IMG/VR virus record: IMGVR_UViG_3300027777_000022
DNA length: 64,000 bases
Direction: 5' to 3' (one strand)
Source: a virus
Lineage: Duplodnaviria; Heunggongvirae; Uroviricota; Caudoviricetes
Shown here piece by piece: positions 35-32,764 of the stretch (the stretch's first letter is position 1; every line of letters begins with the position of its first letter). The position numbers and the translations under genes were made by a program. A model generated the notes under the pieces. That model did no database searches and had not been told where the DNA came from. It was given only the letters and a program-made list of their open reading frames with translations.

Positions 35-658
35 TTAAATTTTGATAGAATATTTTTTATTGTAATCGCCGACTGTTTTAGTATACAACATGAGATCGTA
101 TTCTAAAAAATTTTTCACAAGTTTTTGATAATTTTTATAATATTTTTCTTTGAGTTTAGTAACGTGATTTCTAATTTTAAAATTCGAAGACACGTTTAAT
201 CTATCTTCTAGAGTGATTTTTAAATCAATTCCTTGTTCTTGAAAAAATAAATTGGTTAAATCATCGCCATTGAGTTCTTCGGGCAGTTGAGGGAATTGAT
301 TCCATTTTGTAATTTTAGCATCAAGCGGAATCCAATGTATTGGCAAATACCACAGTGGTCCGAGCATCATGATTAAACTGTAAGTGTGCTCGTCAAACAC
401 CCCACTGACTAATAATTTTTCAATTTTTTCTTCTTGAATGTCAATAGCATTGTTTCGAACATACTGTTCAACTCCGCGAGTGTGTCGATAATGAGGTTCA
501 GTCAAGTGGCCCCATAATATCATCTGGTCAAGATTCAAATTGTTTTCAAACAAATTAATTTCTTGCCAGCCGTGCCGTTTTAGAAATTCTGAATAGGTCA
601 TGCATCCATTTTTTGCACATTTGATATAGACCCATTTATCCTTGACAAATCCTAACAT
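35..658 (-). CDS. hypothetical protein
   Basis: 207-aa ORF abutting the upstream gene (TAAATG junction); no motif recognised. Confidence 0.6.
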   Translation of the reverse strand: MLGFVKDKWVYIKCAKNGCMTYSEFLKRHGWQEINLFENNLNLDQMILWGHLTEPHYRHTRGVEQYVRNNAIDIQEEKIEKLLVSGVFDEHTYSLIMMLGPLWYLPIHWIPLDAKITKWNQFPQLPEELNGDDLTNLFFQEQGIDLKITLEDRLNVSSNFKIRNHVTKLKEKYYKNYQKLVKNFLEYDLMLYTKTVGDYNKKYSIKI

Positions 659-967
659 TTATATTCTTTGTAACAATAGTTTTATTAGCCCTGCGCTGTC
701 AATTATACTTAATATCAAGTAGTTGCCCAGGATTCCAAAGCTACCACGTGTGTATGAGCACCAGGCCATGATCAAGCAGCCGGCAATGAAAGCACAATAC
801 AATGGTATGAATGGCAGATCGGGCACAGTGATAGCATAGGTCAAGCTACATCCTAATGATATTGCCCACCCTAACATTTCCAAACAGAATCGTAGAGGAT
901 GTGCTCGAAAATCAGCCTGCACATACTGTACTACACTGCTGCGCCAGTCTGCAAATGACTGACTCAA
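659..967 (-). CDS. small membrane protein (about 3 TM helices)
   Basis: Three hydrophobic stretches; stop/start overlap with 964..1227. Confidence 0.6.
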   Translation of the reverse strand: MSQSFADWRSSVVQYVQADFRAHPLRFCLEMLGWAISLGCSLTYAITVPDLPFIPLYCAFIAGCLIMAWCSYTRGSFGILGNYLILSIIDSAGLIKLLLQRI

Positions 968-1227
968 AGGGTTTTGCCTACAGTTTCCAGGATGGTTTCT
1001 AGTAATTCGTGATCTTGCTTGGCTCGACCAAACTCAGCTTTGTGTGCCAGTTTGATGGCTCGTTTTAGCACGCCTGGTTTAATTTCCAATTCTTCGGCAA
1101 TGGCTTTGATGGTATCATTGAGACCACCGGTGAGTGTTTCGATCTCTTGCGTGACTTGCATGCCTTCGTTGATGATTTGGATCAGCTTGATCTTTTGATC
1201 GCCGTTGAATGTTTTCTGATTGTCCAT
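964..1227 (-). CDS. T4 DsbA/GapR-like double-stranded DNA-binding protein
   Basis: 87 aa; pattern EIETL..GLNDTIKAIAEELEIKPGVLKRAIKL resembles T4 DsbA; has its own RBS (GGAGAA) and promoter. Confidence 0.65.
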   Translation of the reverse strand: MDNQKTFNGDQKIKLIQIINEGMQVTQEIETLTGGLNDTIKAIAEELEIKPGVLKRAIKLAHKAEFGRAKQDHELLETILETVGKTL

Positions 1228-1248
1228 TGAGTTCTCCAGTAAAAATAC

Positions 1249-1277
1249 ATTATAGCTGAGTTAACCAATAAGTTCAA
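1249..1277 (-). promoter_or_regulatory. sigma70-like promoter for the DsbA-like gene
   Basis: TTGAAC-N17-TATAAT on the minus strand. Confidence 0.65.
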
Positions 1278-2397
1278 GAGTTTCGGCTAACTTTCTTCGC
1301 ATTCGTGTTTCATACCAGGAATAAATTGTTCGCATCACCAATATGTTTTTTTCAAATCTTGTTTGACACTGTTGCCACAATTGTTTGGCATAATCAGGAT
1401 CAGTGAGCAATCGACGATTGGATTCAATAGCAGTAACTATGCGATCAAATGGATTGGCAATAGAATCATAGCTGTGATCAATCACATCATCAAACACATC
1501 TAGTCCCAGTTCTCGCAAATGTGCCACAGCACCGCAACCATTGAGAATGATTGGAAAATTACAACCATAAAAGCTATGCGCAGTTTTTTCAGTTATAAAA
1601 AAAGAAGGCGCTGAAAATTGAGATTCGCTTACAATTTCTACAAAACTATTTCGATACATGCTTCTTAATTTATTTTCAAAATTTCCTATGTTATGATTGT
1701 GCCCGGCTTTATATATTTCATAATTGTCGTGTACTATCCCATCACCTTGTTTTAGATGATCAAAACCAGCAAGTATTTTTTCTCTTATATCATTGTGTTC
1801 GGGCCCAAACTCCCAATCCACAATATCCAACAATACATCCGGGTTACCTTTTGGATTTTTTAAATAAGATATGATGCCATGATCGGCATATCCTGCTCCA
1901 AATAGATAACTTAATGTAATTAATCTGTGTGGTCTAACCTGTCTATTTAAACAAATAAAGGTACGTGTGCTATCAAAATTCTTGTCAAGAACAGGTTTTA
2001 ACACACTATATTCAGCACGTTGATTAACCCAATCACCACCCCACGGTATGATGTGTAAGTTAGGCTCGTTAAGTTCTAGATCTAGCTGTTCCAGACTAGT
2101 AAATAAAATTATGTTTGTATTTGGATGTCTCTTTACAAATCCTTCAATACTAACGCTGCCAGTATGTTGCCGGTCTTGCCACCAGTTAAATGGTTTCCAG
2201 CTGTCAATACAATCTTTAACTCCAATGATTGCCAATGGGTTACTGCATTTGGCATTTTGAAAAAATTGATCCATGATCCATGGTGGACAACTCCACATAT
2301 AGTAACAATCGAAGTTATTGGTAATGTTATCAACTAGTTCATTGAACAACGGATATGTAAAATCATCGGTGGGGGGTTTTGATATGATGTATGTCAT
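1261..2397 (-). CDS. glycosyltransferase-like protein (distant GT10/GT-B type)
   Basis: C-terminal FVEIVSESQF...FITEKTAHSF..FPIILNG..LRELGLDVFDDVIDHSYD; start moved to MTYIISK just after the upstream stop. Confidence 0.45.
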   Translation of the reverse strand: MTYIISKPPTDDFTYPLFNELVDNITNNFDCYYMWSCPPWIMDQFFQNAKCSNPLAIIGVKDCIDSWKPFNWWQDRQHTGSVSIEGFVKRHPNTNIILFTSLEQLDLELNEPNLHIIPWGGDWVNQRAEYSVLKPVLDKNFDSTRTFICLNRQVRPHRLITLSYLFGAGYADHGIISYLKNPKGNPDVLLDIVDWEFGPEHNDIREKILAGFDHLKQGDGIVHDNYEIYKAGHNHNIGNFENKLRSMYRNSFVEIVSESQFSAPSFFITEKTAHSFYGCNFPIILNGCGAVAHLRELGLDVFDDVIDHSYDSIANPFDRIVTAIESNRRLLTDPDYAKQLWQQCQTRFEKNILVMRTIYSWYETRMRRKLAETLELIG

Positions 2398-2399
2398 AG

Positions 2400-3029
2400 T
2401 TACTCTACTCTGGTTAAATACCAATCTTGTCTTAGGGCCAAGGCTTGATCTATCAATGGAAATATTTGCATTTCTGCACAAACACGTTGATACTCTTGAA
2501 CAAAGGTATTTTTGCTTGTTAATAATAGACCAAGGTCAATTGGTTTCATGTTGAACTGCTGGGTTGATTGCAAAAATTGTTGTTGTTCTCCTGAGCGAAT
2601 TTGAAATTGTAATTTTTGTTGTGCTAACTTTACCCAGTTGCCCCATACTTCAAGATCAAGATCAACATAGTAAAATTCTGTATCAGTGATGTCAGTCAGA
2701 TCGTTAACAAATTCATGCGGGTGCAGAGGAAATACTATTCTAGAATATTTGTGCTTGCAAAATACATTAAGTAATCTGTAAAACACATGCTGTTTATGAT
2801 CTGCAAATGCTCGATGAAATTGTTGCCATGTGTCAAACTCGGTGAGTACCGTAGAAAATTGATAGTTAGCTAACCTATCAAATGAGTCGGCAATTTCCAA
2901 ACCATAATTGATGTACTCATACATCATAGATTGACGTATCAGTGGCATAGTTTCTGCACCCAATGAAAACAGTCTGGCTATAAAGTTTCCTGCATGTCCA
3001 GGCATGTACAACACTATCACAGTTTTCAT
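2400..3029 (-). CDS. P-loop/sulfotransferase-like protein
   Basis: N-terminal beta strand followed by YMPGHAGNF loop, resembling a sulfotransferase 5'-PSB loop. Confidence 0.4.
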   Translation of the reverse strand: MKTVIVLYMPGHAGNFIARLFSLGAETMPLIRQSMMYEYINYGLEIADSFDRLANYQFSTVLTEFDTWQQFHRAFADHKQHVFYRLLNVFCKHKYSRIVFPLHPHEFVNDLTDITDTEFYYVDLDLEVWGNWVKLAQQKLQFQIRSGEQQQFLQSTQQFNMKPIDLGLLLTSKNTFVQEYQRVCAEMQIFPLIDQALALRQDWYLTRVE

Positions 3030-3036
3030 AATCTAC

Positions 3037-3654
3037 TTATAATTGCATGATCCGCAGAGCTTTTTTAGGTTGTAGTTTGATCCATAAGTCTAGGAATTTA
3101 CTTTGATCCGCAGAAGCAGGCGCTGTGATAACCTCCTCTAGTCTTATGATTTTGGCAGGAGTAAATTCATTGATGATCTTGGGCACTAGAGGATCTACCT
3201 TGATGCTATTAAAATCCACAGCAGATTGTTTGATTTGTCGGATATACTGTTGATTACTGGGCGCTTGAAATGCGGCACGGCTGATATTAGTAAACCAGTA
3301 TGCATTTTTTTCCCAAGCCATTCTTAACTGCAATTTCAATGGCGCATATAATAATATCTTGTGTGTTCCATCACTGATGTTGTGATTAATCTTGATCATG
3401 TGATCATTCCAAAGTGGATTACAGATTAAAAATAGCCGTGTTCCGGACTGTTGTTTTAATTCCTGATTGTTGGGCCAGTGTTCTTGATTTTTCCAATTTC
3501 TACTATTAGTCAACAAGTCAATTGGGAATTGACGATGTATCAATTCCCAAGTTTGGTCAATGCTGTGTTGAAACTGCCCTGACAGCAGCAAGTAGTAATA
3601 CAATGCAAACCCACCGCTGCCACCTTGATAAAAGATGCTGACATTACCTGTCAT
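3037..3654 (-). CDS. P-loop/sulfotransferase-like protein
   Basis: N-terminal SIFYQGGSGGF loop, similar in architecture to the neighbouring gene. Confidence 0.35.
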   Translation of the reverse strand: MTGNVSIFYQGGSGGFALYYYLLLSGQFQHSIDQTWELIHRQFPIDLLTNSRNWKNQEHWPNNQELKQQSGTRLFLICNPLWNDHMIKINHNISDGTHKILLYAPLKLQLRMAWEKNAYWFTNISRAAFQAPSNQQYIRQIKQSAVDFNSIKVDPLVPKIINEFTPAKIIRLEEVITAPASADQSKFLDLWIKLQPKKALRIMQL

Positions 3655-3659
3655 TTATA

Positions 3660-5492
3660 TCAATGGCTGTTTAACATCTGTGCCATCAGTGCCCGACGTT
3701 TCACACGATGCTCGCTCACGGTCTTTGGCACAGGGTCTGCTTTCTTGGGTTCTGGCTTTTTGGGAATTGAGCCGGGAGTTCTTGCCAAGCTGGCATCACT
3801 CTTGGCACGTTGTCGATCCCAGGCCGTGCTCAATCGTTGCGCAGCACTTGTACGTGCTTCCGCCACACCTTGCTCTGACACTACCAAGACCTTATCAATA
3901 TGTCGTTTGGCAGCCGCCAGCGTGGTAAATTTTTTAGCACTGGAACTGATACCCCATTGACTTGGTCCTTCCTGTGTTATACCATAACCCTTGTATGTTC
4001 CTTTTTTACCCACAAAAGTATCAGGATTATATTCACCCTCCGCCACACCTTCAGGACTAGCATTTGCTCTAGCTTGTTCTTTGGTAGGATGCCATCCTTC
4101 TCTCTGGGCCTGTGCCACCTGTCTAGGATAGATAGATGCTGTGTACATTTTGGTACCTATCTTCTTGTACCAGTCAGTTGGGTCTAGGTCATGACGCTCA
4201 TCGTCACCGCGATTGAATCTACCACCTGTACCACGGAATGGACGATGACCTTCAGACATGCCTTGCGACTCATTTTGTGCTGCTGGATTGGATATTTTTG
4301 CCGCTGCTTTTGTTCGGGCGATTGTCATCCAGTTGGTTTGCTGTCTACTATCCATTGGTTGACCACGTTCGGCAACCATTTGATCGTAAATTGATTTAGT
4401 AAGGGCATTTATATCTGGAATTTGTTGTATGCGAGGATCATCTCGACGCATATTTAAAAGATCAGATGTTGTATCTTCGGCCATTCCTTGCTCAGGTTGA
4501 ACAATCCAATGATAAAAATATTTATAATTGTCAGGGGTTACACGTACACCAGTGTTTGTGTAATCTGTCTCAAGAGCAAAAATATGTGGGGCGACTTTTC
4601 TCAAACGATCACCAGTATCAAAGATATCATAAAACTTGTTTTTAATAAGTTTGGTTGCGTCAGCTAGACTATTAACGTTGCCTAGATCTTGTGCAACTCC
4701 ATCAGGCTCAACAAATATAACTTTGTAATTCCTGGCATCTTGGCGAGCTTCCTCTACATCTTGCTGTTTACGCCGTTTGGCATAGTCAGTGTTGGCAGGA
4801 TTCTTTTTGTTCTTGGCAGGTGCTCGAGTACCAGCAATACGTTCTTCTTCACTCTTGCGACGTGTGAAATAATCATTGGCAGCAGAGCCTTCCGCCACAC
4901 CTTCCTTATACAATGCTAGTCGCTTCTGCTCGTGGGCAATACTTTGTTGTATAGCAGCCTTGTCGGCATTGGGTTGTTTGAGTTGTGCTTGTAATCTTTC
5001 TATAGCGGCTTTAATAGCAGCCACATCCTTTTGATCACGCTTGCTCAAGCCTTCCGCCACACCTTGCTCGGGATGATGCCCCATTAGCCGCATCATGGTA
5101 CGAACATGCACACGGTCTTTTTCTTTTTCATCTTCGGGCAAATCATCATATGGCACATGCTGTGCTGCATTCCAATCGCCTTTGGGGTTGCGCTTCATCC
5201 ACTCGTTGTGAACGTGTTCGGCTGCTTTTTCCATGTCACGGCCAAAATGTTTCACAGCATGATGAGCAGCATGTGCTGCTGCTAGATTTTCTTTTTTCCA
5301 GTCTGGATGCAACTTCTCAAACGGCACATTGATATCACCTTCGGTACCATCACTATTCTTTTTCACACGTGGCTTTGTACCTGTGGGGTCAAAGTTCCTG
5401 CGCCATTCTTCATGTGCATTGCTAGCAAACTGTGTTATGGGATCCATTTGGGATTCAAAAATGGGCCGGGTAAAAAGGTTATCAATGATCAT
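3660..5492 (-). CDS. modular putative internal head polyprotein with N-terminal tandem RyR-like repeats and repeated (Q/E)G(V/M)(A/S)E junctions
   Basis: HEEW..VPFEKLHPDWK and HNEW..VPYDDLPEDEKEKDR (RyR-domain pattern); six QGVAEG-like motifs separate the modules. Confidence 0.6.
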   Translation of the reverse strand: MIIDNLFTRPIFESQMDPITQFASNAHEEWRRNFDPTGTKPRVKKNSDGTEGDINVPFEKLHPDWKKENLAAAHAAHHAVKHFGRDMEKAAEHVHNEWMKRNPKGDWNAAQHVPYDDLPEDEKEKDRVHVRTMMRLMGHHPEQGVAEGLSKRDQKDVAAIKAAIERLQAQLKQPNADKAAIQQSIAHEQKRLALYKEGVAEGSAANDYFTRRKSEEERIAGTRAPAKNKKNPANTDYAKRRKQQDVEEARQDARNYKVIFVEPDGVAQDLGNVNSLADATKLIKNKFYDIFDTGDRLRKVAPHIFALETDYTNTGVRVTPDNYKYFYHWIVQPEQGMAEDTTSDLLNMRRDDPRIQQIPDINALTKSIYDQMVAERGQPMDSRQQTNWMTIARTKAAAKISNPAAQNESQGMSEGHRPFRGTGGRFNRGDDERHDLDPTDWYKKIGTKMYTASIYPRQVAQAQREGWHPTKEQARANASPEGVAEGEYNPDTFVGKKGTYKGYGITQEGPSQWGISSSAKKFTTLAAAKRHIDKVLVVSEQGVAEARTSAAQRLSTAWDRQRAKSDASLARTPGSIPKKPEPKKADPVPKTVSEHRVKRRALMAQMLNSH

Positions 5493-5493
5493 A

Positions 5494-6156
5494 TTATGCT
5501 TCTTCTAAGTAATCTTCACTAGGATCTTGCGGTAGACCACGACGATGCGCTCTAAACATCTCTACTGCCATCTCAGCTTCATCTAAGTTGCCAAACCGAC
5601 TGGGCAACACACGACCTCGGTGGCGAATTTCAAATCCACGGCTTTGATCTCCCCAGCATTCTAAACAGGTACCATCTTCCAAAGTGATAATTTTTACAGG
5701 TCCACACTCGCCCACACTCACAGGATTCATCATGGCAGTACCTGACATCATGGGCTCTTCAGATTCTTCTTGTGTGTCTTCTTCGTAGTCGTCTTGGTCG
5801 TCGGGTTTGGCTGGATTTTTATCTTGAATTTCTTGTTTGGCTTTTTGTTCCAGCTGGTCAAGGTACTGTGTGAGATCTTTTTTGACTCGGCTTAACATGT
5901 CCTCGTCAATTTCAGACATGCGTTCTGCTAGCGCACTACGAACAGGTTGTACTGAGTCACCCACCATTTTTTTACCTAGAGGTTTCTTTTGATTGTTGCT
6001 GCCCAAGACCGGTGATATGTTTTCAGGCTTGAACAACGCAGGCAGTTGCGGTACTGACTTTTGTTGCTTGTTCAGCCCTTTTTTTACCCCAACAGGAGTA
6101 ATGTCTGATTCAATCATTCTCAGTCGATTTAAAATGTTTGCTATGTCGTTGTTCAT
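5494..6156 (-). CDS. acidic/basic hypothetical protein, possible prohead core-associated protein
   Basis: Start moved to MNNDIANIL (ATGA overlap with the dps stop); acidic linker; ends SEDYLEEA. Confidence 0.55.
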   Translation of the reverse strand: MNNDIANILNRLRMIESDITPVGVKKGLNKQQKSVPQLPALFKPENISPVLGSNNQKKPLGKKMVGDSVQPVRSALAERMSEIDEDMLSRVKKDLTQYLDQLEQKAKQEIQDKNPAKPDDQDDYEEDTQEESEEPMMSGTAMMNPVSVGECGPVKIITLEDGTCLECWGDQSRGFEIRHRGRVLPSRFGNLDEAEMAVEMFRAHRRGLPQDPSEDYLEEA

Positions 6157-6593
6157 GCTCGTTGAACTTTCAAATAACTGGTCAGCTGCCAACGATACTT
6201 GCCATGAGCACTGAGTCGTTCTGCAATAAAATTAGCAATGCCTTGCTCATTTTCTTCGTTGGCCGAAGCAAAGCAAGCATTTAATACATCAAGCATTTGA
6301 TCGTTGTTGGCGTGTAATTCTTCCAACATAAGTCTAGCACGAGGAACCTTAATCTGGCCAGAAATCTTTGTGAGTTCACTGTAACGCTCTAGACTGGCAG
6401 GAGCGTATTCTCCCAAGTAGCGAATGTATTCAGCTGTGGGATCTAGTGCAGAATAAGCATCTTCATAGATGGCTTGAAAGAAAGCATGCAGTTCTCCAAA
6501 GTCAGGACCTTCCACATTCCAATGAAAGCCATGTGCTTTTAAGTAGTAGGCAAAATTAGTTGCCAGGAGTGTTTTTAAATTGTCCGCGAGCAT
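6153..6593 (-). CDS. dps: Dps-family DNA-protecting mini-ferritin
   Basis: HGFHWNVEG, LHAFFQAIYE, D..AEYIRYLG, HGKYRWQL; RBS AAGGAA before MLADNL. Confidence 0.9.
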   Translation of the reverse strand: MLADNLKTLLATNFAYYLKAHGFHWNVEGPDFGELHAFFQAIYEDAYSALDPTAEYIRYLGEYAPASLERYSELTKISGQIKVPRARLMLEELHANNDQMLDVLNACFASANEENEQGIANFIAERLSAHGKYRWQLTSYLKVQRA

Positions 6594-6768
6594 GCTTGTT
6601 CCTTTTGTATTCCTTGGGCGTGTTAGGCGTCGGGTCCGTTGTGTATTTACCACTAAGCATAGAACCGCCCGATCTTGTTTGCATGCCCAAGGGTTGAACC
6701 ATCACAGCCACAGATCCAGTGCCTGAGCTGCCACTGCTTGCATCTTCCATTATTTCATGTACTTTCAT
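6556..6768 (-). CDS. small putative internal head peptide (leader MKVHEIME)
   Basis: Short acidic leader ending in E, then a Gly/Ser-rich and a basic segment. Confidence 0.5.
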   Translation of the reverse strand: MKVHEIMEDASSGSSGTGSVAVMVQPLGMQTRSGGSMLSGKYTTDPTPNTPKEYKRNKHARGQFKNTPGN

Positions 6769-7057
6769 GTTCAATCCTTAACAATGTGTTGTTCACTATA
6801 CTTGCGCCTGGCGGACCTTCTTTGATACGTGTGTTGCTCACTTGAATATGCCCTTGTGCCGGTGACACCAATTCTCGGCGCAATTCATATTCGCCAGGCG
6901 GTGCATAAATTTGTATCAGTTCTTCTAGATACTGCTCTCTCCAGATCCATGTGCGTTCAGAAAACAACTCTCCGCCTACGTACAATCTATAATTAGGCGG
7001 CGGCCCTGACCAGTCAACTGAAACATCAGCGTTGATCAACACAAACTGTGCAGTCAT
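6755..7057 (-). CDS. hypothetical protein
   Basis: 100-aa ORF coupled to both neighbours. Confidence 0.55.
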   Translation of the reverse strand: MTAQFVLINADVSVDWSGPPPNYRLYVGGELFSERTWIWREQYLEELIQIYAPPGEYELRRELVSPAQGHIQVSNTRIKEGPPGASIVNNTLLRIEHEST

Positions 7058-7278
7058 CTTTGTTCTGTTGAGCGTGTGCCTAATACTGTGGCATTATTTC
7101 TGTCTGCCCATGCATACGCAGCTTCGCCACTTGGGAAAATTTTACGCCATACTATACGTTGATCGCGATTGTTGTATCTATAACCATATGCTTCAACTGG
7201 TCCAGATCCTTCCACGTCCTTTTCGCCCAGGAATCCCATGCCTTCGCGTGGATGGTCAAAGAATTCGTATAGTCTCAT
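7054..7278 (-). CDS. small putative internal head protein (leader MRLYEFF)
   Basis: Shares the M-R-x-x-E-F leader with the upstream array genes. Confidence 0.55.
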   Translation of the reverse strand: MRLYEFFDHPREGMGFLGEKDVEGSGPVEAYGYRYNNRDQRIVWRKIFPSGEAAYAWADRNNATVLGTRSTEQR

Positions 7279-7280
7279 GA

Positions 7281-7607
7281 TTATGCTGTCCAGGGCAGTG
7301 GAAGTATTACCACCGGAGGATTGATTTGTAGATCAATTAGAGCTTGCACTTGCAGTTCCACAGCAGCTCTATCAACACCATTGGTCCAGATCCAGTCAAG
7401 CACTTGTTCTTGTGTTAGATCAGCGTAAGGTGTAAAAGAAGTAGAAGGTAAAGGAACATTGCAAGCACTGAGTGCAGCTACCTGAGTGCTGTAAGTATCC
7501 TGTACACCACTGCACACCCAATACACTGCAAACACTACATCCGTATAATTTTCTGCTTCGGGATAGCAGGTCATTTCAGTTACTGTCCAAGTTATTGTTG
7601 CGGCCAT
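7281..7607 (-). CDS. conserved phage protein (ITW..M.CYP...VV..V.W..SG...FTPYADLTQEQVLDWIW family)
   Basis: Start moved to MAATITW with RBS AGAG; motif common in phage structural regions. Confidence 0.6.
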   Translation of the reverse strand: MAATITWTVTEMTCYPEAENYTDVVFAVYWVCSGVQDTYSTQVAALSACNVPLPSTSFTPYADLTQEQVLDWIWTNGVDRAAVELQVQALIDLQINPPVVILPLPWTA

Positions 7608-7630
7608 GATAATTCTCTTTCTATAATTTG

Positions 7631-8281
7631 TTATGCCATTTGTGTGGCAGGTGCCAACGCTGCGGCCATGGCCATGCGTTTTTGTCTTGCTTGCCCATTG
7701 CTGCGCTCGTAGTAATGATCCACAATGGCAGCAGCATCCTTGGCTGTTTTTGCACCTTTCAATGCTTGCCCTGCTTGTGATTCTGTGTTGTTCAATTCCC
7801 ATTGCACAAATTCTAATTGGTCTTGCAAGCTGGAACCTTGCAATGGTTTACGCATTTCTTTAGCAAAATCTTGTTGTCGTGATCCGCGCCATTGTGCAAT
7901 TCCATATGCTTGCTCTTTGGGATTTAGTGCAGCAGGGTTGAGATTTTGTCCTGATTCAGTTTGTAAGTTAGCTACCAGGCCAGCAGCTTGTTCGGGTGAC
8001 CATCCTTGCTGAACAAAGTAGTCCAGGGCAATTTTTGCATTGCCTGATGAACCGCCTTGGCCTGCAGATCCAGTTGATGATCTAGCCATATTGGATCCAG
8101 GCAATCTTATCTGAGATCCAGGCTGGATATCACTGGCATTGGAAAACTGTGGGTTCTGCCACATGATGCCATCTATTGTGGTATCGTTGGCCCGAGCTAT
8201 GCTCTGCAAGGAATCCCCGGATCTCACGGTATAGATATTGCTCGAGCCGGTGGCTTCGGACAAGAACTCAAATGACTTCAT
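7631..8281 (-). CDS. LysM + phage tail-lysozyme-like peptidoglycan hydrolase with capsid-targeting-like leader
   Basis: YTVRSGDSLQSIAR...IQPGSQIRLP (LysM); QAAGLVANLQTESG..LNP...AYGIAQW (Phage_lysozyme2); leader MKSFEFLSE. Confidence 0.85.
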   Translation of the reverse strand: MKSFEFLSEATGSSNIYTVRSGDSLQSIARANDTTIDGIMWQNPQFSNASDIQPGSQIRLPGSNMARSSTGSAGQGGSSGNAKIALDYFVQQGWSPEQAAGLVANLQTESGQNLNPAALNPKEQAYGIAQWRGSRQQDFAKEMRKPLQGSSLQDQLEFVQWELNNTESQAGQALKGAKTAKDAAAIVDHYYERSNGQARQKRMAMAAALAPATQMA

Positions 8282-8282
8282 G

Positions 8283-9110
8283 TTAGCCTTTTAACATGTT
8301 TGATAAACGACGCATGCGATCCACGCTTTCTTCAAAGTCTCTGCGATCTGCATTTGTTGCACCGCCTGTTACAGGTGCTGCTGGTGCTTTAGGCGCTGCC
8401 GGTGCCGCTGGTGCTTTAGGCGCTGCTGGGGATGTTCCTCCTGCAGGTATTCCTAATCTTGCTCTACCTTGATCAATCAAAGATGGGCCTGTAGCTAATC
8501 GTTGGCTAACTGATTGTTTTGTTGGATCTACAGCAGGAGTAGCTGCTTGTTGTACTGCACCTGGTGCAGGTCGCGACAATCTAGCAGTTTCTGCTGATGA
8601 CTGATTGGGTGCTGCTGCTGCTTTTTGTGCTGCTTGAGTAGCTGGCCCCATGATACCGTCGGCTTTGATCTTGTAACCTTTGGCAATAAGATCTTGCTGT
8701 ATTTTCAACACTGCTGGATCAGACCGGCGCCCGGATGTTTGTTGCCCGGGACGGGCAGGTAATTTCACTGGTGCTGCTGCTTGTGCTGTTTGTGCAGGAT
8801 CTTGGCTCATTGGATTTGCAGCAGGTATATTTGGTGCTGCTGGTGCTGCTGGTGCTGCTGGGGGCACAAAAGGATTGGCGTATACATCATCACTGTCATC
8901 CATTGAATTCACTGGCGCCGGTACACCCTGACCAGCTTGTTGTGCCGGATCTCGTGCCATGTTGCTAGCAGCGCCAGTTTGTGGTGCCCCAGCAAAGAAA
9001 TTTTTAATTCCTTGAAGATTCTTTTGACCTTGAGCTTGTTGTGCAGCATATTCAGCATCGGTCATTGGCTCTCCTGGACCTGCTTCTCTAATAAATTCTG
9101 TTGATCTCAT
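8283..9110 (-). CDS. Ala/Pro/Gln-rich protein with a peptidoglycan-binding domain and capsid-targeting-like leader
   Basis: VLKIQQDLIAKGY..KADGIMGPATQAA (PG_binding_1 pattern); leader MRSTEFIRE. Confidence 0.7.
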   Translation of the reverse strand: MRSTEFIREAGPGEPMTDAEYAAQQAQGQKNLQGIKNFFAGAPQTGAASNMARDPAQQAGQGVPAPVNSMDDSDDVYANPFVPPAAPAAPAAPNIPAANPMSQDPAQTAQAAAPVKLPARPGQQTSGRRSDPAVLKIQQDLIAKGYKIKADGIMGPATQAAQKAAAAPNQSSAETARLSRPAPGAVQQAATPAVDPTKQSVSQRLATGPSLIDQGRARLGIPAGGTSPAAPKAPAAPAAPKAPAAPVTGGATNADRRDFEESVDRMRRLSNMLKG

Positions 9111-9140
9111 GTGATGTTCCTTTATGAATGATCTATGCTT

Positions 9141-9146
9141 TATTTA
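9141..9146 (-). promoter_or_regulatory. T4-type late promoter core (TAAATA)
   Basis: TAAATA 30 nt upstream of the 9110 start, with AAGGAA RBS in between. Confidence 0.55.
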
Positions 9147-9148
9147 TT

Positions 9149-9352
9149 CTATTTGCCTTGTGCTGCTAATCTAGCACCATTGTTAAAACTGTTGCTGTGA
9201 CTCATTGCATTCCTGTTGCCACGTGCTTTGCTCCAGGCATATCCAGCTCTGTGGCCAGAACAATCTTTGGTGCAAGGAGATCCCAAGAAGCTCAGTTCGT
9301 CCAGTTCCTGGTGTTCGGGCTTTTTCTTGCGGGTGAATTCTCTTGCTCTCAT
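9149..9352 (-). CDS. small basic putative internal head peptide
   Basis: Leader MRAREF...ELDE, then LSFLGSPCTKDCSGHRAGYAW. Confidence 0.6.
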   Translation of the reverse strand: MRAREFTRKKKPEHQELDELSFLGSPCTKDCSGHRAGYAWSKARGNRNAMSHSNSFNNGARLAAQGK

Positions 9353-9828
9353 TTGGCATCTCCAAAGATAGGTCCACTCACATACTGCCCATTTTGACTC
9401 AATATGCCATTGCGCAAATTCTCAATGATACCATCTGTAATATCTCTGCGTCGAAAGTGTGGCAAAAAGACATGTGTTTCTACCGGTTGATCACCTTGCT
9501 CGTCCAAGATAGCATACATTCTGTGACGGCCGTCATGATCACGAACCCGGGCTTCTAGACTAAAGTCATCTGACTCCCAAGCTTCGGGCACCACAACAGT
9601 CAAGAATGGAGCACCAAAGCCTGGATCATTGATGTGTTTTCTCAAGTGCTGTATAGTCTCTTGCTCGTCGGGTGAGTTCTTGTCCAAGGGTAAACTCAGC
9701 TTCAAAAACATACTGGGCCGCATGACCACTTGCAGGCCAAAGTAATTCACATCTGCATTGTGTGGCACTGCACCCAGACCTTGCCGGTTGTTTATCTTTA
9801 GTTCTGTAATAAATTCAGTTGCTCTCAT
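9349..9828 (-). CDS. ParB/Srx-like domain protein with capsid-targeting-like leader
   Basis: DHDGRHRMYAI (ParB-type DGxHR); leader MRATEFITE; ATGA coupling. Confidence 0.6.
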   Translation of the reverse strand: MRATEFITELKINNRQGLGAVPHNADVNYFGLQVVMRPSMFLKLSLPLDKNSPDEQETIQHLRKHINDPGFGAPFLTVVVPEAWESDDFSLEARVRDHDGRHRMYAILDEQGDQPVETHVFLPHFRRRDITDGIIENLRNGILSQNGQYVSGPIFGDAK

Positions 9829-10622
9829 GCGCCGCTCCAAGTTGCGTATAGTCCAGAATTAAATCTACCACTGCCGTATATTTTGCTCATATAAGTTTTA
9901 ACATAGGCTTCTAATTCTTGTCCAGTTGTTGTGGGCTGTACATCAAATGTAAAAAATCGTTCTCCATCTTTAGATGAGCCAAGATATTCTCCACCCAGTT
10001 GGCCCATGACTGTGTCAATATTACGAGAAGTTAGATCATAATGTTCTAAACCAACATACCCTTTCATTTCAACACCGGGTATACTGGCAAGGCTGACCCA
10101 ATTTTTACGGCCACCGGGTGTTTGGGAAAGACCGGCAACCAGTGGCAATTTCATGATAGTTAATACAATACCATACAATGCTGTGGCAATTCCCTGCCCT
10201 CTATAATCTTCATCAACAGTGATAGTATCAACTCTTACTGCATCAGGTAACGGAAAATTGTGATATCCGGTTTTTGCCGGTGTGGTTAAAAGTTTACCAA
10301 TCAATTGTCCAGGAGTTTGTAATGCTCGTTTATTAGCATGATTCCAATATTGAACTCTTTCGTTATATGACCCGTCTGATTCTCGAGGTTTTCTAACTGG
10401 CGGCGTTTGTGTAGCATTGATATAATCCGGTCCTTTTGGATCCCATATTTGTATATCGGTACCATACTGTCCAGGTCCTATAGTGTATAAGAATCCACTG
10501 CCCCCGGGCAATTTTTTTGTAACATCAGATTTAAACTGTGTGGGAACATATAGTGATTTTTTTCCACCTTGATATTCTCCAGCTGGAATTTTTTCAATAG
10601 TTTCAAACTCCGTTGCTCTCAT
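9825..10622 (-). CDS. GNAT-like acetyltransferase with capsid-targeting-like leader
   Basis: VDTITVDEDYRGQGIATALY (acetyl-CoA-binding motif A); leader MRATEF..IE. Confidence 0.7.
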   Translation of the reverse strand: MRATEFETIEKIPAGEYQGGKKSLYVPTQFKSDVTKKLPGGSGFLYTIGPGQYGTDIQIWDPKGPDYINATQTPPVRKPRESDGSYNERVQYWNHANKRALQTPGQLIGKLLTTPAKTGYHNFPLPDAVRVDTITVDEDYRGQGIATALYGIVLTIMKLPLVAGLSQTPGGRKNWVSLASIPGVEMKGYVGLEHYDLTSRNIDTVMGQLGGEYLGSSKDGERFFTFDVQPTTTGQELEAYVKTYMSKIYGSGRFNSGLYATWSGA

Positions 10623-11704
10623 CAGCAGTTCCACTTTCTCAGTGCCAAGGCCTTGCGGGTGGGTTTGCCATTGGGCTTCTTCATTGGACCTTTGACTCCG
10701 CCCATTCTAGCACAAAAACTCTTGCGGCGTTTGGCTGCTTTTGAGCCGGGCTTGAGTTTTGAGGGCTTGGTGGTCACTGCCATCTGCAAGTGACTGCCTG
10801 GATGCTCTCTGCGGTAACTGGCCACACCTTTGGCATTAAGACCGCCTTTTTTGCTCTTGCCTGCACTTCTACGCCAGGCTGCTGTTTCATACAGTTCATG
10901 ATCATCCACAGCTTCAAAATCTTCCCAGATTTCATCAGCATCCACACCATGTGCTTCGGCCAGTTCCATAACCATTTCTTCAATGATATCAAACTGTTGA
11001 TCAGCGTTGAGATCTTCTGTGATAGTCCCTGCGGCTTCTTCTCGGGCTTTCTTGAATCCTTTGCCTGGGACCCAACCTGCGATGGGTTTACACTTGCATG
11101 AATCACCGGGGCACTTGCAGTTGATCATGCCGCATTGCATGCAGCGTTTTCCTTCGCTTTCTGCCACACTTTCATTCTTGGCAGTCTTGGCTGCATCTCT
11201 CCATGCTTGTGCAGTAGGTGCTTTGGGACTGCTGGCATCTCTACTGGTACCTGCAGCCTTGCGCTTGTTCACATTGTAGTACAGGCCATGTTTGGCAGCT
11301 TCGTCCATTGCTTTTTTCTTTTTCTTGGCTATGGCAATAGCGGCTTGTTGTGCTGCATTAGCAGCTTCGTCTACACTTTCATTTGGCACACAGTTACGTA
11401 CTTGTCCGCCATTTTTGCCTGTCTTGGTACCTTCAGCATGTTTGCCAGGCCAGCACTTGGTAACACCATTTGCGTCCTTGGCACCTTTGGCAATCTCAAT
11501 GAGATTGCCGTGTGTTTGACACATGCCACAGTCTTCGCAGACCATTTCCATCTCAACTGACTCATTGTGTTTCTTCTTGCCAGCGCAATGTGCTCGTTGG
11601 CTGAAACCTTTAGGATGTGAGCAGTTGATACTGCTCTTGTATTTTTGGCTCCACTTTTCCTCCAAGCGGCGGGTGGTTTCTGTAATAAATTCACTTGATT
11701 TCAT
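10622..11704 (-). CDS. polyprotein of short basic/Cys-rich peptides separated by x-x-E sites (putative internal head protein)
   Basis: Leader MKSSEFITE; modules KWSQKYK..CSHPKGFSQRAHC, KCWPG..VRNCVP, CMQCG..CKCPGDSCKC, AAW.R..GK...GGLN.KG...RRKSFCARM. Confidence 0.6.
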   Translation of the reverse strand: MKSSEFITETTRRLEEKWSQKYKSSINCSHPKGFSQRAHCAGKKKHNESVEMEMVCEDCGMCQTHGNLIEIAKGAKDANGVTKCWPGKHAEGTKTGKNGGQVRNCVPNESVDEAANAAQQAAIAIAKKKKKAMDEAAKHGLYYNVNKRKAAGTSRDASSPKAPTAQAWRDAAKTAKNESVAESEGKRCMQCGMINCKCPGDSCKCKPIAGWVPGKGFKKAREEAAGTITEDLNADQQFDIIEEMVMELAEAHGVDADEIWEDFEAVDDHELYETAAWRRSAGKSKKGGLNAKGVASYRREHPGSHLQMAVTTKPSKLKPGSKAAKRRKSFCARMGGVKGPMKKPNGKPTRKALALRKWNC

Positions 11705-12795
11705 GATGCTTTCTTCTTTCCTGATTTCATGTTGGCCATCCAATGTGCCAATTGTGCAGCCCGGCCTGAGTGGCTCTTGGCATATTTACGCAGATTGCTT
11801 ACTGATGATTTGGTAGGAACACCTAGACGTTTTGAGTCGCCTTTGTCTTCAGGGTGTTTACCGTCGGCAAAGTTTTCATCAACCGAAGGCTCACTGGGAG
11901 TTGCAGGTTTCTCAGCAGCTTGCTTGGCTTTGAAGATAGCATCCCATTTGTCGGAGATAGCATTCTTCAATTCCAGTGTGGATTTAAAATCGTTGTCTTG
12001 CATGTACTTAATTATCCAAACTGCACTAGCACGGTCTCCTGAATCGGGCTTGCGAGCATTGCTGAGATCCACACTGAGATTTTGATCTTCATGTGCATTA
12101 CCATAGTACCGCATGGTCTTTAATGCACGTTTTGCTCGTTCACTTAGATGCGCTTCGTCGTTCTTGGTAATCAACTCAATCCAAGGCTTCACAAAGTCTG
12201 TGGGCTTGCGAGAATATCCAGCCGGTTGCGGTCCACGCAACACTTCACGAGCTTGTGCAGGTGTTTTTGCTCGACGTTTGTCCAGCAAGCGCCAGGCAGC
12301 TTCGTCTGTGTAGAAAAACACAGGCAAGCCTTGTTGTTTGGCTGTGATCAGGATTTGTCGTGTTTCTGGACTGCGATATTCATTTTGTTCTTTCAGCAAC
12401 ACATGAACTTCAGTCACAGGAGTGATTGGAATAGTAGGCTCTTTGCTGAACACACGGTCTTCTGATTCTCTTGTTCTTGTGCCATTGCTGTGCAGCCAAG
12501 AACGTTCCCAGTAGTCGATGGGTTTAACAATGTAACGAGAGTTAAACCAGTCGCCGTTGAGCTTGAACATCACAGCACCTGATCCCACCCAGCGATGATA
12601 GTCTCCAGTTATGGTTCGTGTTAGACTAAGAAAGTACGGATAGCCAGGTGGAGCATACTGTTCTTCACTCCTGGTACCAGTCACGCTGGCCAATTCAAAG
12701 TTACCTGATTGCAGTATTTTTAGACCAGCTCTGATACCAGTGTAATGAAACAATACGTCAGTTGCTCGTTCAATTAAAAATTCATTTGCTCTCAT
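11701..12795 (-). CDS. putative ADP-ribosyltransferase-fold protein with capsid-targeting-like leader and a basic C-terminal module
   Basis: LFHYT..LKILQSG, FLSLTR, RESEDR match the H / S-x-T / E-x-E ART layout; leader MRANEFLIE; VDE junction before the C-terminal peptide. Confidence 0.5.
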   Translation of the reverse strand: MRANEFLIERATDVLFHYTGIRAGLKILQSGNFELASVTGTRSEEQYAPPGYPYFLSLTRTITGDYHRWVGSGAVMFKLNGDWFNSRYIVKPIDYWERSWLHSNGTRTRESEDRVFSKEPTIPITPVTEVHVLLKEQNEYRSPETRQILITAKQQGLPVFFYTDEAAWRLLDKRRAKTPAQAREVLRGPQPAGYSRKPTDFVKPWIELITKNDEAHLSERAKRALKTMRYYGNAHEDQNLSVDLSNARKPDSGDRASAVWIIKYMQDNDFKSTLELKNAISDKWDAIFKAKQAAEKPATPSEPSVDENFADGKHPEDKGDSKRLGVPTKSSVSNLRKYAKSHSGRAAQLAHWMANMKSGKKKAS

Positions 12796-18924: not shown

Positions 18925-19485
18925 ATGATATTTACCAAAAGTTGCCCACCTAGCGGTTTCTATGTATACGCATATCTTCGTAATGACGGTACACCGTATT
19001 ACATCGGTAAAGGAAAAAATAAAAGAGCATGGGATAGAGCCCATAGTGTTGTAGTCCCATTGGATCAAAACAGAATTATAACTTTAGAAACAGGTCTCTC
19101 AGAGATAGGTGCGTTAGCTATAGAACGCAGAATGATTGCTTGGTATGGTCGAAAAGATTGCAATACAGGTATTCTAAGAAACAAAACTGAGGGAGGGGAA
19201 GGCCCATCATCTGCTGACAGATTAGGAAACAAAAATCCCATGTTTGGTAGAAAACAAAGCGCAGAATCTAATAGAATACGTCGAGAAAAATCTTTAGGTA
19301 GGATAGTTACAGAAGAAACACGACAGAAATCATCAGACGCTCTCATTGGCAAAAGAAATGGAAAAGATAATCCCATGTTTGGTAGGAAACATTCTGCTGA
19401 AACTGTAGAGAAAATACGTGAGGCAAAAAAAGGAAAGATTCCTTGGAACAAAGGAAAAACTTACAATCTTAAAAAAAGCCCCTAA
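18925..19485 (+). mobile_element. free-standing GIY-YIG homing endonuclease with NUMOD3 repeats (Seg-like), opposite in orientation to the flanking genes
   Basis: FYVYAYL...PYYIGKG..R; repeated KNPMFGRKQS/DNPMFGRKHS..E..KI; RBS AAGGAG. Confidence 0.85.
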
Positions 19486-31173: not shown

Positions 31174-31784
31174 ATTACTGTTACCTTTACATCTGATTTA
31201 TAGTAGTCTTGAAAATAAGACTCCGGCGGTGAAATATCTAACGATTTGCACAGGTCCAAATTGTTGTCGGGCCAACGTGATGGATAACGTGCAATAGCTT
31301 GCTGTATGCCAAGATTCTGACTGTGAATAATACTGGCCATTGTTCGTAGATCTCGATAGTATTCGTGATACAATGGATAAGTGATATCAAAATGGCCGCA
31401 TTTGACCCACCATCCCAAACAAGCATCGTCGGGGCGATGTACCAGCACAACAGCACAATCGGGCCAGCAGGCCTTTAAGAAATCAATATTGTTGGCAAAG
31501 ATGTGGCTCTTGATAATACGAATGCCATTGCCTGAGAATGCACTGTTAAATATATCCTCCAGTGCATCTTTACTCAGAGTGAACAAGTCAGGTGGTAAAC
31601 CAAACTCCATGCCAGGATCAAAATACGCACCCAAATGCATCAAATCCATTGTGCCGCCAGCGTCGTGATAATAAGTCCTAGCAACACTGTAATCGCTTTG
31701 ATCTAGGTCAGTGCTGTAATAAATGTTCTTGACCACACTGCTCCATTTACTGCCCGGGGCGCCGGCTACAAAGATATATTTCAT
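31170..31784 (-). CDS. sulfotransferase-like protein
   Basis: IFVAGAPGSKWS loop, IIKSH, VLVHRP. Confidence 0.45.
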   Translation of the reverse strand: MKYIFVAGAPGSKWSSVVKNIYYSTDLDQSDYSVARTYYHDAGGTMDLMHLGAYFDPGMEFGLPPDLFTLSKDALEDIFNSAFSGNGIRIIKSHIFANNIDFLKACWPDCAVVLVHRPDDACLGWWVKCGHFDITYPLYHEYYRDLRTMASIIHSQNLGIQQAIARYPSRWPDNNLDLCKSLDISPPESYFQDYYKSDVKVTVI

Positions 31785-32764
31785 TCTTTACTTAAATCAA
31801 TTCGACTCAGCACAGGAATAAAGGCGGCTCGCAATTCATCCATTTGTCGACGCAGGCCTGCTGGTGTGAGTTCATCTTCTTCGTAGAATACCACATTGAT
31901 TTCTCTCCATTCAGCATATTCTTTACTACGCACAGCAGCACTGAAATTCTTCTGATACCATTCTACAATATCTCTGGGAGTGTTGGGTGGTAACTGGATA
32001 CTCCACGCAGCATAAACGTTGATACCGGGTGCCACATCTTTCAACAAGGGCACTGTAGGGAACTGTGGCATGCGTTGTGTGCCGGTGAATCCGATAGGCT
32101 TGACTTTGCCGCCTTCCACTAGCGCACGAGCCACTGCAATGGGCATGATGCCAAATTCAGTTCCGCCGTTTTTAGGATCAAAGGACGCTACACTGATCAC
32201 TGCGGGCATAGGGCCGTTGAACTTGATAGGCTGCACTTGCTGTCTATTTCCGTGGCCACGTTCCATCAAGTATTCGTATGCTGTTCTATGTGCGCCGCCG
32301 CCTAGCGCCACATTGACAGGGCGTGTGGTAGTGCTGATTAACTTAACAAAATCCTGTGGAGTGTTTACACTACTGCTGGGATGTGCTACTAGCACCAAGG
32401 GTGATTTGCCCATGGTCAACACATCTACAAATGAATCGTAGTTGTATTTCTTCACAGACTTTTCCCAGATGTCGTTGGTCACATAACTGCTCATGTGACT
32501 TGGCAGATTGATTGAGTGCCCGTCAGGTGCCTGTGTTAGGAAATAGTTGTTGGCCAGTGCTGAATCCACACCTGGGCGATTTTCAACTGCAAAACTGACC
32601 TTGGGATTGGTCTTTTGTACGATCTCGGCCAGTTTCCTAAACGCTATTTCGTTGCCGGCGCCGGCGGTATTGCCCACGATTACAGTAACGGGTCGGGTGG
32701 GTTCCCAGGCAAATGCTATCGCGGGCAAGAGAACCAAAGTTGCTAGTATTTTTTTGATGTTCAT
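31781..32764 (-). CDS. Bug/TctC-family tripartite tricarboxylate transporter substrate-binding protein
   Basis: Signal peptide; PVTVIVG..AG..., VENRPG, APDGHS, G.AH, PQFPTVP, W....P.NTP. Confidence 0.85.
   Translation of the reverse strand: MNIKKILATLVLLPAIAFAWEPTRPVTVIVGNTAGAGNEIAFRKLAEIVQKTNPKVSFAVENRPGVDSALANNYFLTQAPDGHSINLPSHMSSYVTNDIWEKSVKKYNYDSFVDVLTMGKSPLVLVAHPSSSVNTPQDFVKLISTTTRPVNVALGGGAHRTAYEYLMERGHGNRQQVQPIKFNGPMPAVISVASFDPKNGGTEFGIMPIAVARALVEGGKVKPIGFTGTQRMPQFPTVPLLKDVAPGINVYAAWSIQLPPNTPRDIVEWYQKNFSAAVRSKEYAEWREINVVFYEEDELTPAGLRRQMDELRAAFIPVLSRIDLSKE

Follow-up and report, generated by a model that had tools for sequence, protein, structure and literature searches.

A polyprotein gene of an uncultured lake phage whose modules are exchanged at a short DNA word encoding putative head-protease sites

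The DNA analysed here, the window, is the 64,000-nucleotide stretch of the IMG/VR virus record IMGVR_UViG_3300027777_000022. It is a fragment of the genome of an uncultured freshwater (lake) giant phage, related to T4, in which the minus strand carries nearly all genes. The nearest cultured relatives are those of the Pseudomonas PA5oct group, as judged at the amino acid (aa) level from the clamp loader (51%) and from the capsid protein of a related contig (65%). The window encodes a 1931-aa collagen-like tail fibre, a ClpB-like ATPase, a clamp loader, and a 2017-aa multi-enzyme protein. Our subject is an open reading frame (ORF) of its minus strand, at 3660-5492, that encodes a polyprotein of 610 aa made of a leader and a series of small modules separated by short joints; its start codon overlaps the stop of the gene upstream (TAATATG). 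The features of the gene are given below in the order of translation, the arrow marking the predicted cut.

3660..5492, minus strand: polyprotein gene, 610 aa plus stop, ATG overlapping the preceding stop
5454..5492, minus strand: leader MIIDNLFTRPIFE↓, aa 1-13, capsid-targeting-like, ends I-F-E
5052..5453, minus strand: module 1, aa 14-147, RyR-like domain; a separate gene, with a leader of its own, in many related phages
5049..5066, minus strand: joint 1, QGVAE↓G, canonical DNA word CAAGGTGTGGCGGAAGGC; L088 (98.4%) and L085 (91.3%) are homologous and collinear up to this point
4890..5051, minus strand: module 2, aa 148-201, helical and basic; its length of 54 aa is invariable, and other polyproteins have it at positions 2 to 9
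4887..4904, minus strand: joint 2, EGVAE↓G, canonical word
4749..4889, minus strand: module 3a, aa 202-248, basic; directly behind the leader in many relatives
4746..4760, minus strand: cryptic variant joint DVEE↓A, GAT GTA GAG GAA GCT; homology breakpoint
4476..4748, minus strand: module 3b, aa 249-339, small alpha/beta domain (AF2 pLDDT 67); stand-alone in P0176
4473..4490, minus strand: joint 3, QGMAE↓D, peptide kept, DNA diverged (CAA GGA ATG GCC GAA GAT)
4251..4475, minus strand: module 4, aa 340-414, helical; canonical QGVAE at both flanks in P0158
4248..4265, minus strand: joint 4, QGMSE↓G, peptide kept, DNA diverged (CAA GGC ATG TCT GAA GGT)
4038..4250, minus strand: module 5, aa 415-485, conserved core ERHDLDPxDWY; beta-hairpin and two helices (AF2 pLDDT 71)
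4035..4052, minus strand: joint 5, EGVAE↓G, canonical word; identity with L087 begins 4 nucleotides (nt) before
3858..4037, minus strand: module 6, aa 486-545, 60 aa; positions 3 to 9 in other polyproteins
3855..3872, minus strand: joint 6, QGVAE↓A, canonical word
3663..3857, minus strand: module 7, aa 546-610, pI 11.6; constant C-terminal module

There are six copies of the motif G-[VM]-[AS]-E in the polyprotein (aa 144, 198, 336, 411, 482, and 542), and G[VMIL][AS]E has only three matches elsewhere in the window when all six frames are searched. With 0-2 mismatches allowed, the 17-mer CAAGGTGTGGCGGAAGG is found four times (3856-3872, 4036-4052, 4888-4904, and 5050-5066), every time on the minus strand and within the polyprotein gene, for a chance expectation of 0.09 matches obtained from shuffles. 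These four canonical joints are spelled GGT GTG GCG GA[AG]. The joints near 4474 (CAA GGA ATG GCC GAA GA, encoding QGMAE) and 4249 (CAA GGC ATG TCT GAA GG, encoding QGMSE) differ from the 17-mer at 4 and 5 of its 17 bases, respectively, and are conserved as peptide only, not as DNA. A preliminary description of this locus had proposed that six junctions share close DNA and that synonymous codons are conserved across the copies: the former stands for the four canonical joints and falls for the two just named, and the latter is borne out by GGT GTG GCG in all four canonical joints. The GMAE and GMSE joints of this ORF and of related loci have GGC ATG, rather than GGT, in 11 of 17 cases and may form a second junction spelling class.

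Comparison with relatives reveals two more boundaries, one at the end of the 13-residue leader and the other at the cryptic joint DVEE↓A (aa 248), whose preceding module is followed by four other modules in the aligned genes, or five when P0129 is counted. Once the leader is removed and the chain is split at this cryptic joint, there are eight modules of 47-134 aa with a best pairwise E of 0.18; four modules plus the tail are basic (pI 9.1-11.6). The modules were previously described as unrelated and of 40-110 aa, of which we retain the lack of mutual similarity and correct the sizes, the pieces between the six joints measuring 54-147 aa. The leader is of a type, starting with MIID, that heads 65 of 226 relatives and stands in front of at least seven different first modules. 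At the other end, fragments of module 7 end at, or within a residue of, the protein C-terminus in 36 of 37 relatives.

Apart from a weak RyR match, the searches assigned no function to the modules. The whole polyprotein has no match in PHROGs or in a tblastn search of 50,697 phage records, and a Pfam scan returned only a sub-threshold RyR match in module 1 (PF02026, 23.7 bits for a gathering cut-off of 27.4, E 5.6e-5); two homologues, P0040 and P0078, carry a precomputed PF02026 annotation. The AF2 models of modules 3b and 5, of moderate confidence only (pLDDT 67 and 71), have small folded cores with joint residues at pLDDT <50, which is weak support for cutting at the joints because chain ends often score low anyway. 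Foldseek searches of these two modules against the PDB gave nothing at E <= 0.001, and ESM Atlas searches with modules 3b and 5-6 gave only unnamed small proteins of no assigned function. One alignment of the whole protein with module fragments was discarded because the fragments were misplaced onto the shared joint.

The module content of relatives is highly variable. A word-indexed search returned 235 relatives of very different lengths, covering 8-84% of the query, and an exhaustive search returned 762 representative clusters at E <= 1e-3, in which the best stretches are single modules. The 120 relatives listed contain 287 GVAE motifs, mostly in the context EQGVAEG. When proteins are cut at the motif and the pieces clustered, they form families of fixed length (e.g., 54 aa or 60 aa) that occur at varied positions and in varied company. 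The syntenic orthologues carry 7-11 modules each, with different sets and orders, in agreement with the earlier expectation that module content is not identical in relatives. Some modules also occur on their own. The RyR module is a stand-alone gene behind its own leader in many IMG/VR phages (e.g., MIKEFMNIVE↓S), and module 3b stands alone in P0176 behind the leader MKSIREYINLIE, which ends ...SVEE↓A. Conversely, an open frame of 1294 residues (L003:8195-12049) has among its internal modules both halves of a Cys-rich protein that corresponds to a separate, leader-bearing gene of the window (10622-11743). Modules can thus pass from one form to the other, stand-alone or fused.

Where the breakpoints of these rearrangements fall can be seen in the DNA comparison of the polyprotein gene with three syntenic orthologues, L085, L087, and L088. 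Identity with L088 is 98.4% from 1200 nt upstream of the gene to nt 445 of the coding sequence, and the sequences are unrelated beyond; joint 1 is at nt 430-441. The homology with L085 (91.3%) breaks likewise, at nt 448. The comparison with L087 is the mirror image: the sequences are unrelated upstream of nt 1440 and 100% identical over the 1475 nt from there to the end of the contig, joint 5 being at nt 1444-1455. On the evidence of the alignment, this is a recombinant breakpoint with zero substitutions. Module 2, with both flanking joints (nt 424-607), is transposed and sits elsewhere in L087 and L088. The pattern extends to a set of ten polyprotein genes, in which 138 of the 226 ends of internal blastn matches (high-scoring segment pairs) lie <=15 nt from the centre of a joint, for a random expectation of 21.7 +/- 4.4 and a maximum of 36 in 1000 trials. 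The other ends are mostly at the end of the leader or at variant joints (QNIDE↓A, QGITE↓A, QGVTE↓V, QQDV[ETD]E↓, and HDIDE↓A). Finally, in L091:2240-3313 a block of two to three modules is duplicated in tandem (537 nt); the duplication begins exactly at the word, and its copies are 100% identical over their first 300 nt. The idea that breakpoints sit on the repeat is thus upheld, and these comparisons show, at the level of sequence, that whole-module exchanges, deletions, and duplications occur exactly at the word in natural populations.

The joints are also conserved at silent sites. Codons were counted at 60 joints with distinct contexts from ten genes chosen by protein similarity: the Gly codon is GGT in 60/60 (background 0.47, p 2e-20), Val is GTG in 55/60 (background 0.25, p 1e-27), Ala is GCG in 58/60 (background 0.07, p 2e-64), Glu is GAA in 50/60 with no excess over its background of 0.74, and the codon before the joint Gly is CAA, GAA, or AAA (Gln, Glu, or Lys) in 58/60, its AA ending being fixed (58 of 58 A-ending for 40 expected, p 6e-10), but because joint copies share ancestry these binomial p-values, which assume independence, overstate significance. 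The Gly codon that follows the joint Glu is GGC in 31 of 37 cases. With these flanking preferences included, the conserved unit is a 15-nt word, AAGGTGTGGCGGAAG, extended to AAGGTGTGGCGGAAG(GC), in the same frame at the joints. The contrast between joints and module interiors is free of the independence assumption: in diverged homologous modules the four-fold codon identity of the interior is 0.55-0.66, whereas all 33 comparisons of the adjoining joint codons show identity. The identity of the joint DNA is far beyond codon bias, the explanation that would have refuted the preliminary description, and beyond recent ancestry. An exact-word scan of IMG/VR with a 14-mer, in which some single matches may be due to chance by a rough estimate and which was used for frame only and not for codon statistics, returned at least 120 loci, and in the multi-hit loci 82 of 85 hits were in frame. 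We found no out-of-frame or intergenic use of the word.

These data bear directly on the simplest explanation, namely that the joints are identical only because one ancestral linker was recently duplicated and that their DNA is under no constraint. All copies plausibly descend from one linker, as this explanation requires. Against it, joint codons are still identical across diverged classes of modules with <75% nucleotide identity and a four-fold codon identity of 0.55, and the same word is found in phages whose flanking genes are only ~73% identical. We regard recent duplication as very improbable.

The variant joints separate the constraint on the protein from that on the DNA. They keep hydrophobic-x-Glu with free codons (GGG ATA ACC, GGT GTC ACG, GGC GTA GAC, GAT GTA GAG), and the rule [VIM]-x-E is therefore a protein-level one, independent of the DNA word. 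The joint Gly is GGT in 27 of 50 variant joints, which is near the background, and in 180 of 183 canonical ones, although the canonical set was partly selected through the word and some of the variants, defined by a regular expression, may not be true joints. This suggests two layers of constraint: in the protein, [VIM]-x-E usually followed by G, A, or S; in the DNA, a word that would be kept as a unit.

One could account for the DNA layer without recombination. Breakpoints would lie at joints only because recombinants cutting through modules were lost, and silent-site conservation would serve translation, e.g., a pause between modules. Such a pause might come from the rare codon GCG, the rarest for Ala (7%), or from the two Shine-Dalgarno-like AAGG cores of cAAGGtgtggcggAAGG, AAGG being among the commonest ribosome-binding cores upstream of the phage genes (10 of 54), and the occurrence of exchanges at joints that lack the word fits this account too. 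Yet at off-word joints the Gly codon returns to background, which suggests, within the limits just given for that comparison, conservation of the word as one unit. Genes that look functional retain joints with free codons, two of them in this ORF, which speaks against an essential pause signal, and at nucleotide resolution the breaks lie inside the stretch of identity. Since the word disappears as a whole and joints survive recoding, we rank this account below a recombination handle and consider it unlikely. Internal translation starts at the word were also considered and rejected, there being no suitably spaced start codon.

What would the protein layer be for? V-A-E↓G fits the hydrophobic-x-Glu rule of T4-type head proteases, and the capsid targeting sequence of T4 ends I-A-E. 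These proteases cut C-terminal to Glu with few other determinants, and within the 10-residue capsid targeting sequence of T4, residues 8 and 10 (P3 and P1) are those on which processing depends (PMC9026906, PMC5694885); a change of the P1 Glu to Asp abolishes the cut there (PMC9026906). Of 416 GVAE joints, 359 have G, A, or S directly after Glu. The protease itself, Peptidase_S77 (the T4 gp21 family), is found above cut-off in all four of four near-complete related genomes, and two contigs with word-bearing QGVAEG polyproteins encode it in the order protease, scaffold, Gp23-type capsid protein; one of these two contigs has a 90% identical copy of module 6. The joints thus resemble cut sites of head proteases, and their putative cleavage has indirect support from S77 on related contigs, the match at P3 and P1, the leader-bearing stand-alone modules, and the variant joints that keep [VIM]-x-E.

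The joints might instead be flexible linkers that are never cut, in a single multidomain (polyvalent) protein whose peptide conservation is a by-product of the DNA word. Polyvalent phage proteins can indeed be packaged unprocessed (PMC5512222), and the ESM Atlas model of the polyprotein is a low-confidence string of beads (pTM 0.27). Against this, joints whose DNA has drifted still keep hydrophobic-x-Glu (GMAE, GMSE, GITE, GVTE, NIDE, DVEE, DIDE). The preference for G, A, or S after Glu and the stand-alone modules behind leaders ending in the same tripeptide also argue for cutting, and uncut linkers seem to us a poor candidate.

It is also conceivable that another protease cuts the joints, possibly outside the capsid, either a host enzyme or the 963-aa S8-like peptidase encoded at 41670-44561 (minus strand). 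The latter matches nothing in Pfam or PHROGs and is 26-27% identical to S8-family peptidases from Atu_ph07, a phage of Agrobacterium, and Phosso, a phage of Sinorhizobium; S77 is not in the window. The pairing of Glu at P1 with a hydrophobic residue at P3 is not known to be usual among subtilases, however. Related contigs with these joints also encode S77, and the invariant Glu at P1 with the hydrophobic P3 is the signature of T4-type head proteases (PMC9026906, PMC5694885). We find cutting by another enzyme quite improbable.

Together, these observations lead us to propose the following scheme. The precursor has constant ends, a leader of 13 residues and a basic C-terminal module, and between them a variable series of independent mini-proteins of 47-134 aa. 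The leader would bring the precursor into the prohead, where a T4 gp21-type (Peptidase_S77) prohead protease would cut after Glu at each hydrophobic-x-Glu joint, the predicted sites being IFE↓S, GVAE↓G, GMAE↓D, GMSE↓G, and DVEE↓A. About eight small proteins would be released and leave the head with the DNA. The 15-nt word spells most joints, always in the same frame, so that any two joints, within the gene or between co-infecting phages, offer an in-frame crossover. We favour this scheme as a whole (cargo polyprotein, prohead targeting, cutting by S77 at the joints, and the word as crossover handle), with moderate confidence. The recombination part, already suggested in the preliminary description, is supported by direct comparison of module sets, breakpoints, and codons: breaks fall within the identical stretch, and the fixation of silent sites has no explanation at the protein level. 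As to cause, we infer that the word may itself be the substrate of recombination, kept intact for that reason, rather than a mere marker.

A number of points weigh against the scheme. First, in-frame exchanges also occur at variant joints that lack the word, e.g., at QQDV[ETD]E, behind which five different modules are found; exchange thus has no strict need of the word. Second, selection for intact modules alone could place the surviving breakpoints at joints. Third, an identity of 15-22 nt is short for efficient homologous recombination of the T4 type. A scan of ten ORFs (nine around the gene, at 35-7057, and the endonuclease ORF at 18925-19485) for the dedicated recombinase or integrase that an integron-like or site-specific cassette system would have beside its array found no recombinase family, and the only nuclease found in them is this homing-endonuclease-like ORF (NUMOD3), 13 kb away. 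Fourth, the shared ancestry of the joint copies tempers the codon statistics, as mentioned above. Fifth, the four near-complete S77-bearing relatives, which have stand-alone RyR genes, contain the word once or not at all; the protease can hence do without that spelling, which is specific to one clade. Sixth, the MIID leader is similar to the T4 capsid targeting sequence, yet it does not match it; it is longer than that sequence or the MRATEFITE of its neighbours and cannot be aligned residue for residue with either. Lastly, neither Peptidase_S77 nor the head genes are in the 64-kb window.

Among known systems, the nearest kind is probably, to judge by sequence features, the tagged and processed head cargo of T4. 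The internal head proteins of T4 and other T-even phages (IPI, IPII, IPIII, and Alt) have a capsid targeting sequence that is removed by the prohead protease gp21 (PMC9026906, PMC3012670). Our system resembles them in a short leader ending in hydrophobic-x-Glu, a Glu-specific S77 in relatives (PMC9026906, PMC3012670), variable cargo behind a conserved tag, and the placement of the gene within an array of putative tagged cargo genes. It differs from them in having many unrelated cargos in one precursor, with a predicted cut-site motif between each, an internal site that is fixed in DNA, modules that alternate between stand-alone and fused forms, and no sequence similarity. In the giant phages phiKZ, 201phi2-1, and SPN3US, head precursors are each cut several times by the prohead protease, which cleaves behind the Glu of a minimal motif, A/S/G-x-E (PMC9026906, PMC5694885). 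There, in contrast, the extra cuts mainly remove propeptides, and neither cassette shuffling nor a fixed DNA spelling has been reported.

Polyvalent proteins (Iyer, Burroughs, Anand, de Souza, Aravind 2017, PMC5512222) also join many unrelated modules in a single phage polypeptide, which is probably delivered along with the DNA. They are defined by enzymatic effector domains, and their processing was proposed to occur via built-in peptidase domains (PMC5512222). Here, the modules are small and lack known enzyme families, and they are separated by a uniform, repeated, DNA-conserved joint of which PMC5512222 describes no equivalent. We found none of the effector or enzymatic domains required of polyvalent proteins in the polyprotein by Pfam or PHROGs, and the modelled modules 3b and 5 gave no function.

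Polymorphic toxins offer a parallel for the joint. The VENN motif of CdiA and the PxxxxDPxGL motif of Rhs are short peptides that mark the border between constant and variable parts, are linked to release of the variable part, and are the place at which recombination exchanges cassettes. These toxins have one junction per protein, the C-terminal toxin is swapped with its immunity gene, and recombination proceeds via long flanking homology. The polyprotein genes, unlike them, have 6-10 junctions each, no toxin-immunity pairs, and ~15 nt of shared DNA; we found no Rhs or CdiA Pfam domain in the polyprotein and no pattern of a paired small immunity gene at the compared loci. No paper describing the QGVAEG joint or its dual coding was found in the literature, and this locus contributes the recombinant breakpoint without substitutions together with the two-layer codon argument.

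The surroundings of the gene are themselves conserved, in the order Dps/ferritin, a 220-aa gene, the polyprotein, and, further on, DNA polymerase B (PolB). In all eight related loci listed, the 220-aa gene separates the polyprotein gene from the Dps/ferritin-like one, which is thus second upstream. In the window, the Dps/ferritin-like protein is encoded at 6153-6653 (minus strand; PF00210, E 3.5e-18), and the gene just upstream of the polyprotein, at 5494-6192 (minus strand), is without Pfam family and corresponds to the one of 220 aa in relatives. Its product probably begins MNNDIANILNRLRMIE↓S, an N-terminus that resembles a leader and closes with hydrophobic-x-Glu, and may be another head cargo protein. 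The genes at 7054-12795 all begin with leaders of the MRATEFITE type, similar to the T4 capsid targeting sequence. The gene of the 2017-aa polyvalent protein is 7 kb from the polyprotein and in the same operon direction, and the NUMOD3 ORF (18925-19485, plus strand) lies antisense between it and the next operon. The T4 late promoter TATAAATA has two matches in the window, no more than expected by chance, one of them inside the polyprotein ORF. Further away, the window encodes a TctC-like receptor of tripartite tricarboxylate transporters (31781-32764, minus strand; PF03401, E 3e-17), an unusual auxiliary gene for a phage. Two long ORFs, at 46614-49517 (plus strand, 967 aa) and 47230-49539 (minus strand, 769 aa), overlap the collagen-repeat tail-fibre gene in other frames and are most likely artefacts of its GGX repeat composition.

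Among the weapons of a phage, the proteins that accompany its DNA reach the host first, and little is understood of the ways in which this arsenal is renewed. This locus suggests a simple and general solution, in which mini-protein cassettes are placed in frame between identical joints and one crossover would produce a new and still processable set of cargo. If joints are cut as predicted, a single targeting tag would load equal amounts of about eight proteins. The double use of 15 bases, for a protease site and for a crossover word, would make a clear and testable case of selection on silent sites, and it suggests a design rule by which several foreign proteins may be loaded into T4-type heads. 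One may go further, on a doubtful but possible reading, and see in the word an actively maintained signal for in-frame cassette exchange, a protein-coding integron without integrase, maybe recognised by a dedicated factor or acting as a hotspot; a clade of lake phages would then trade injected, ready-to-cut mini-proteins through protease and recombination sites encoded in the same bases. The hundreds of module families are an unexplored pool of candidate proteins for host takeover or anti-defence.

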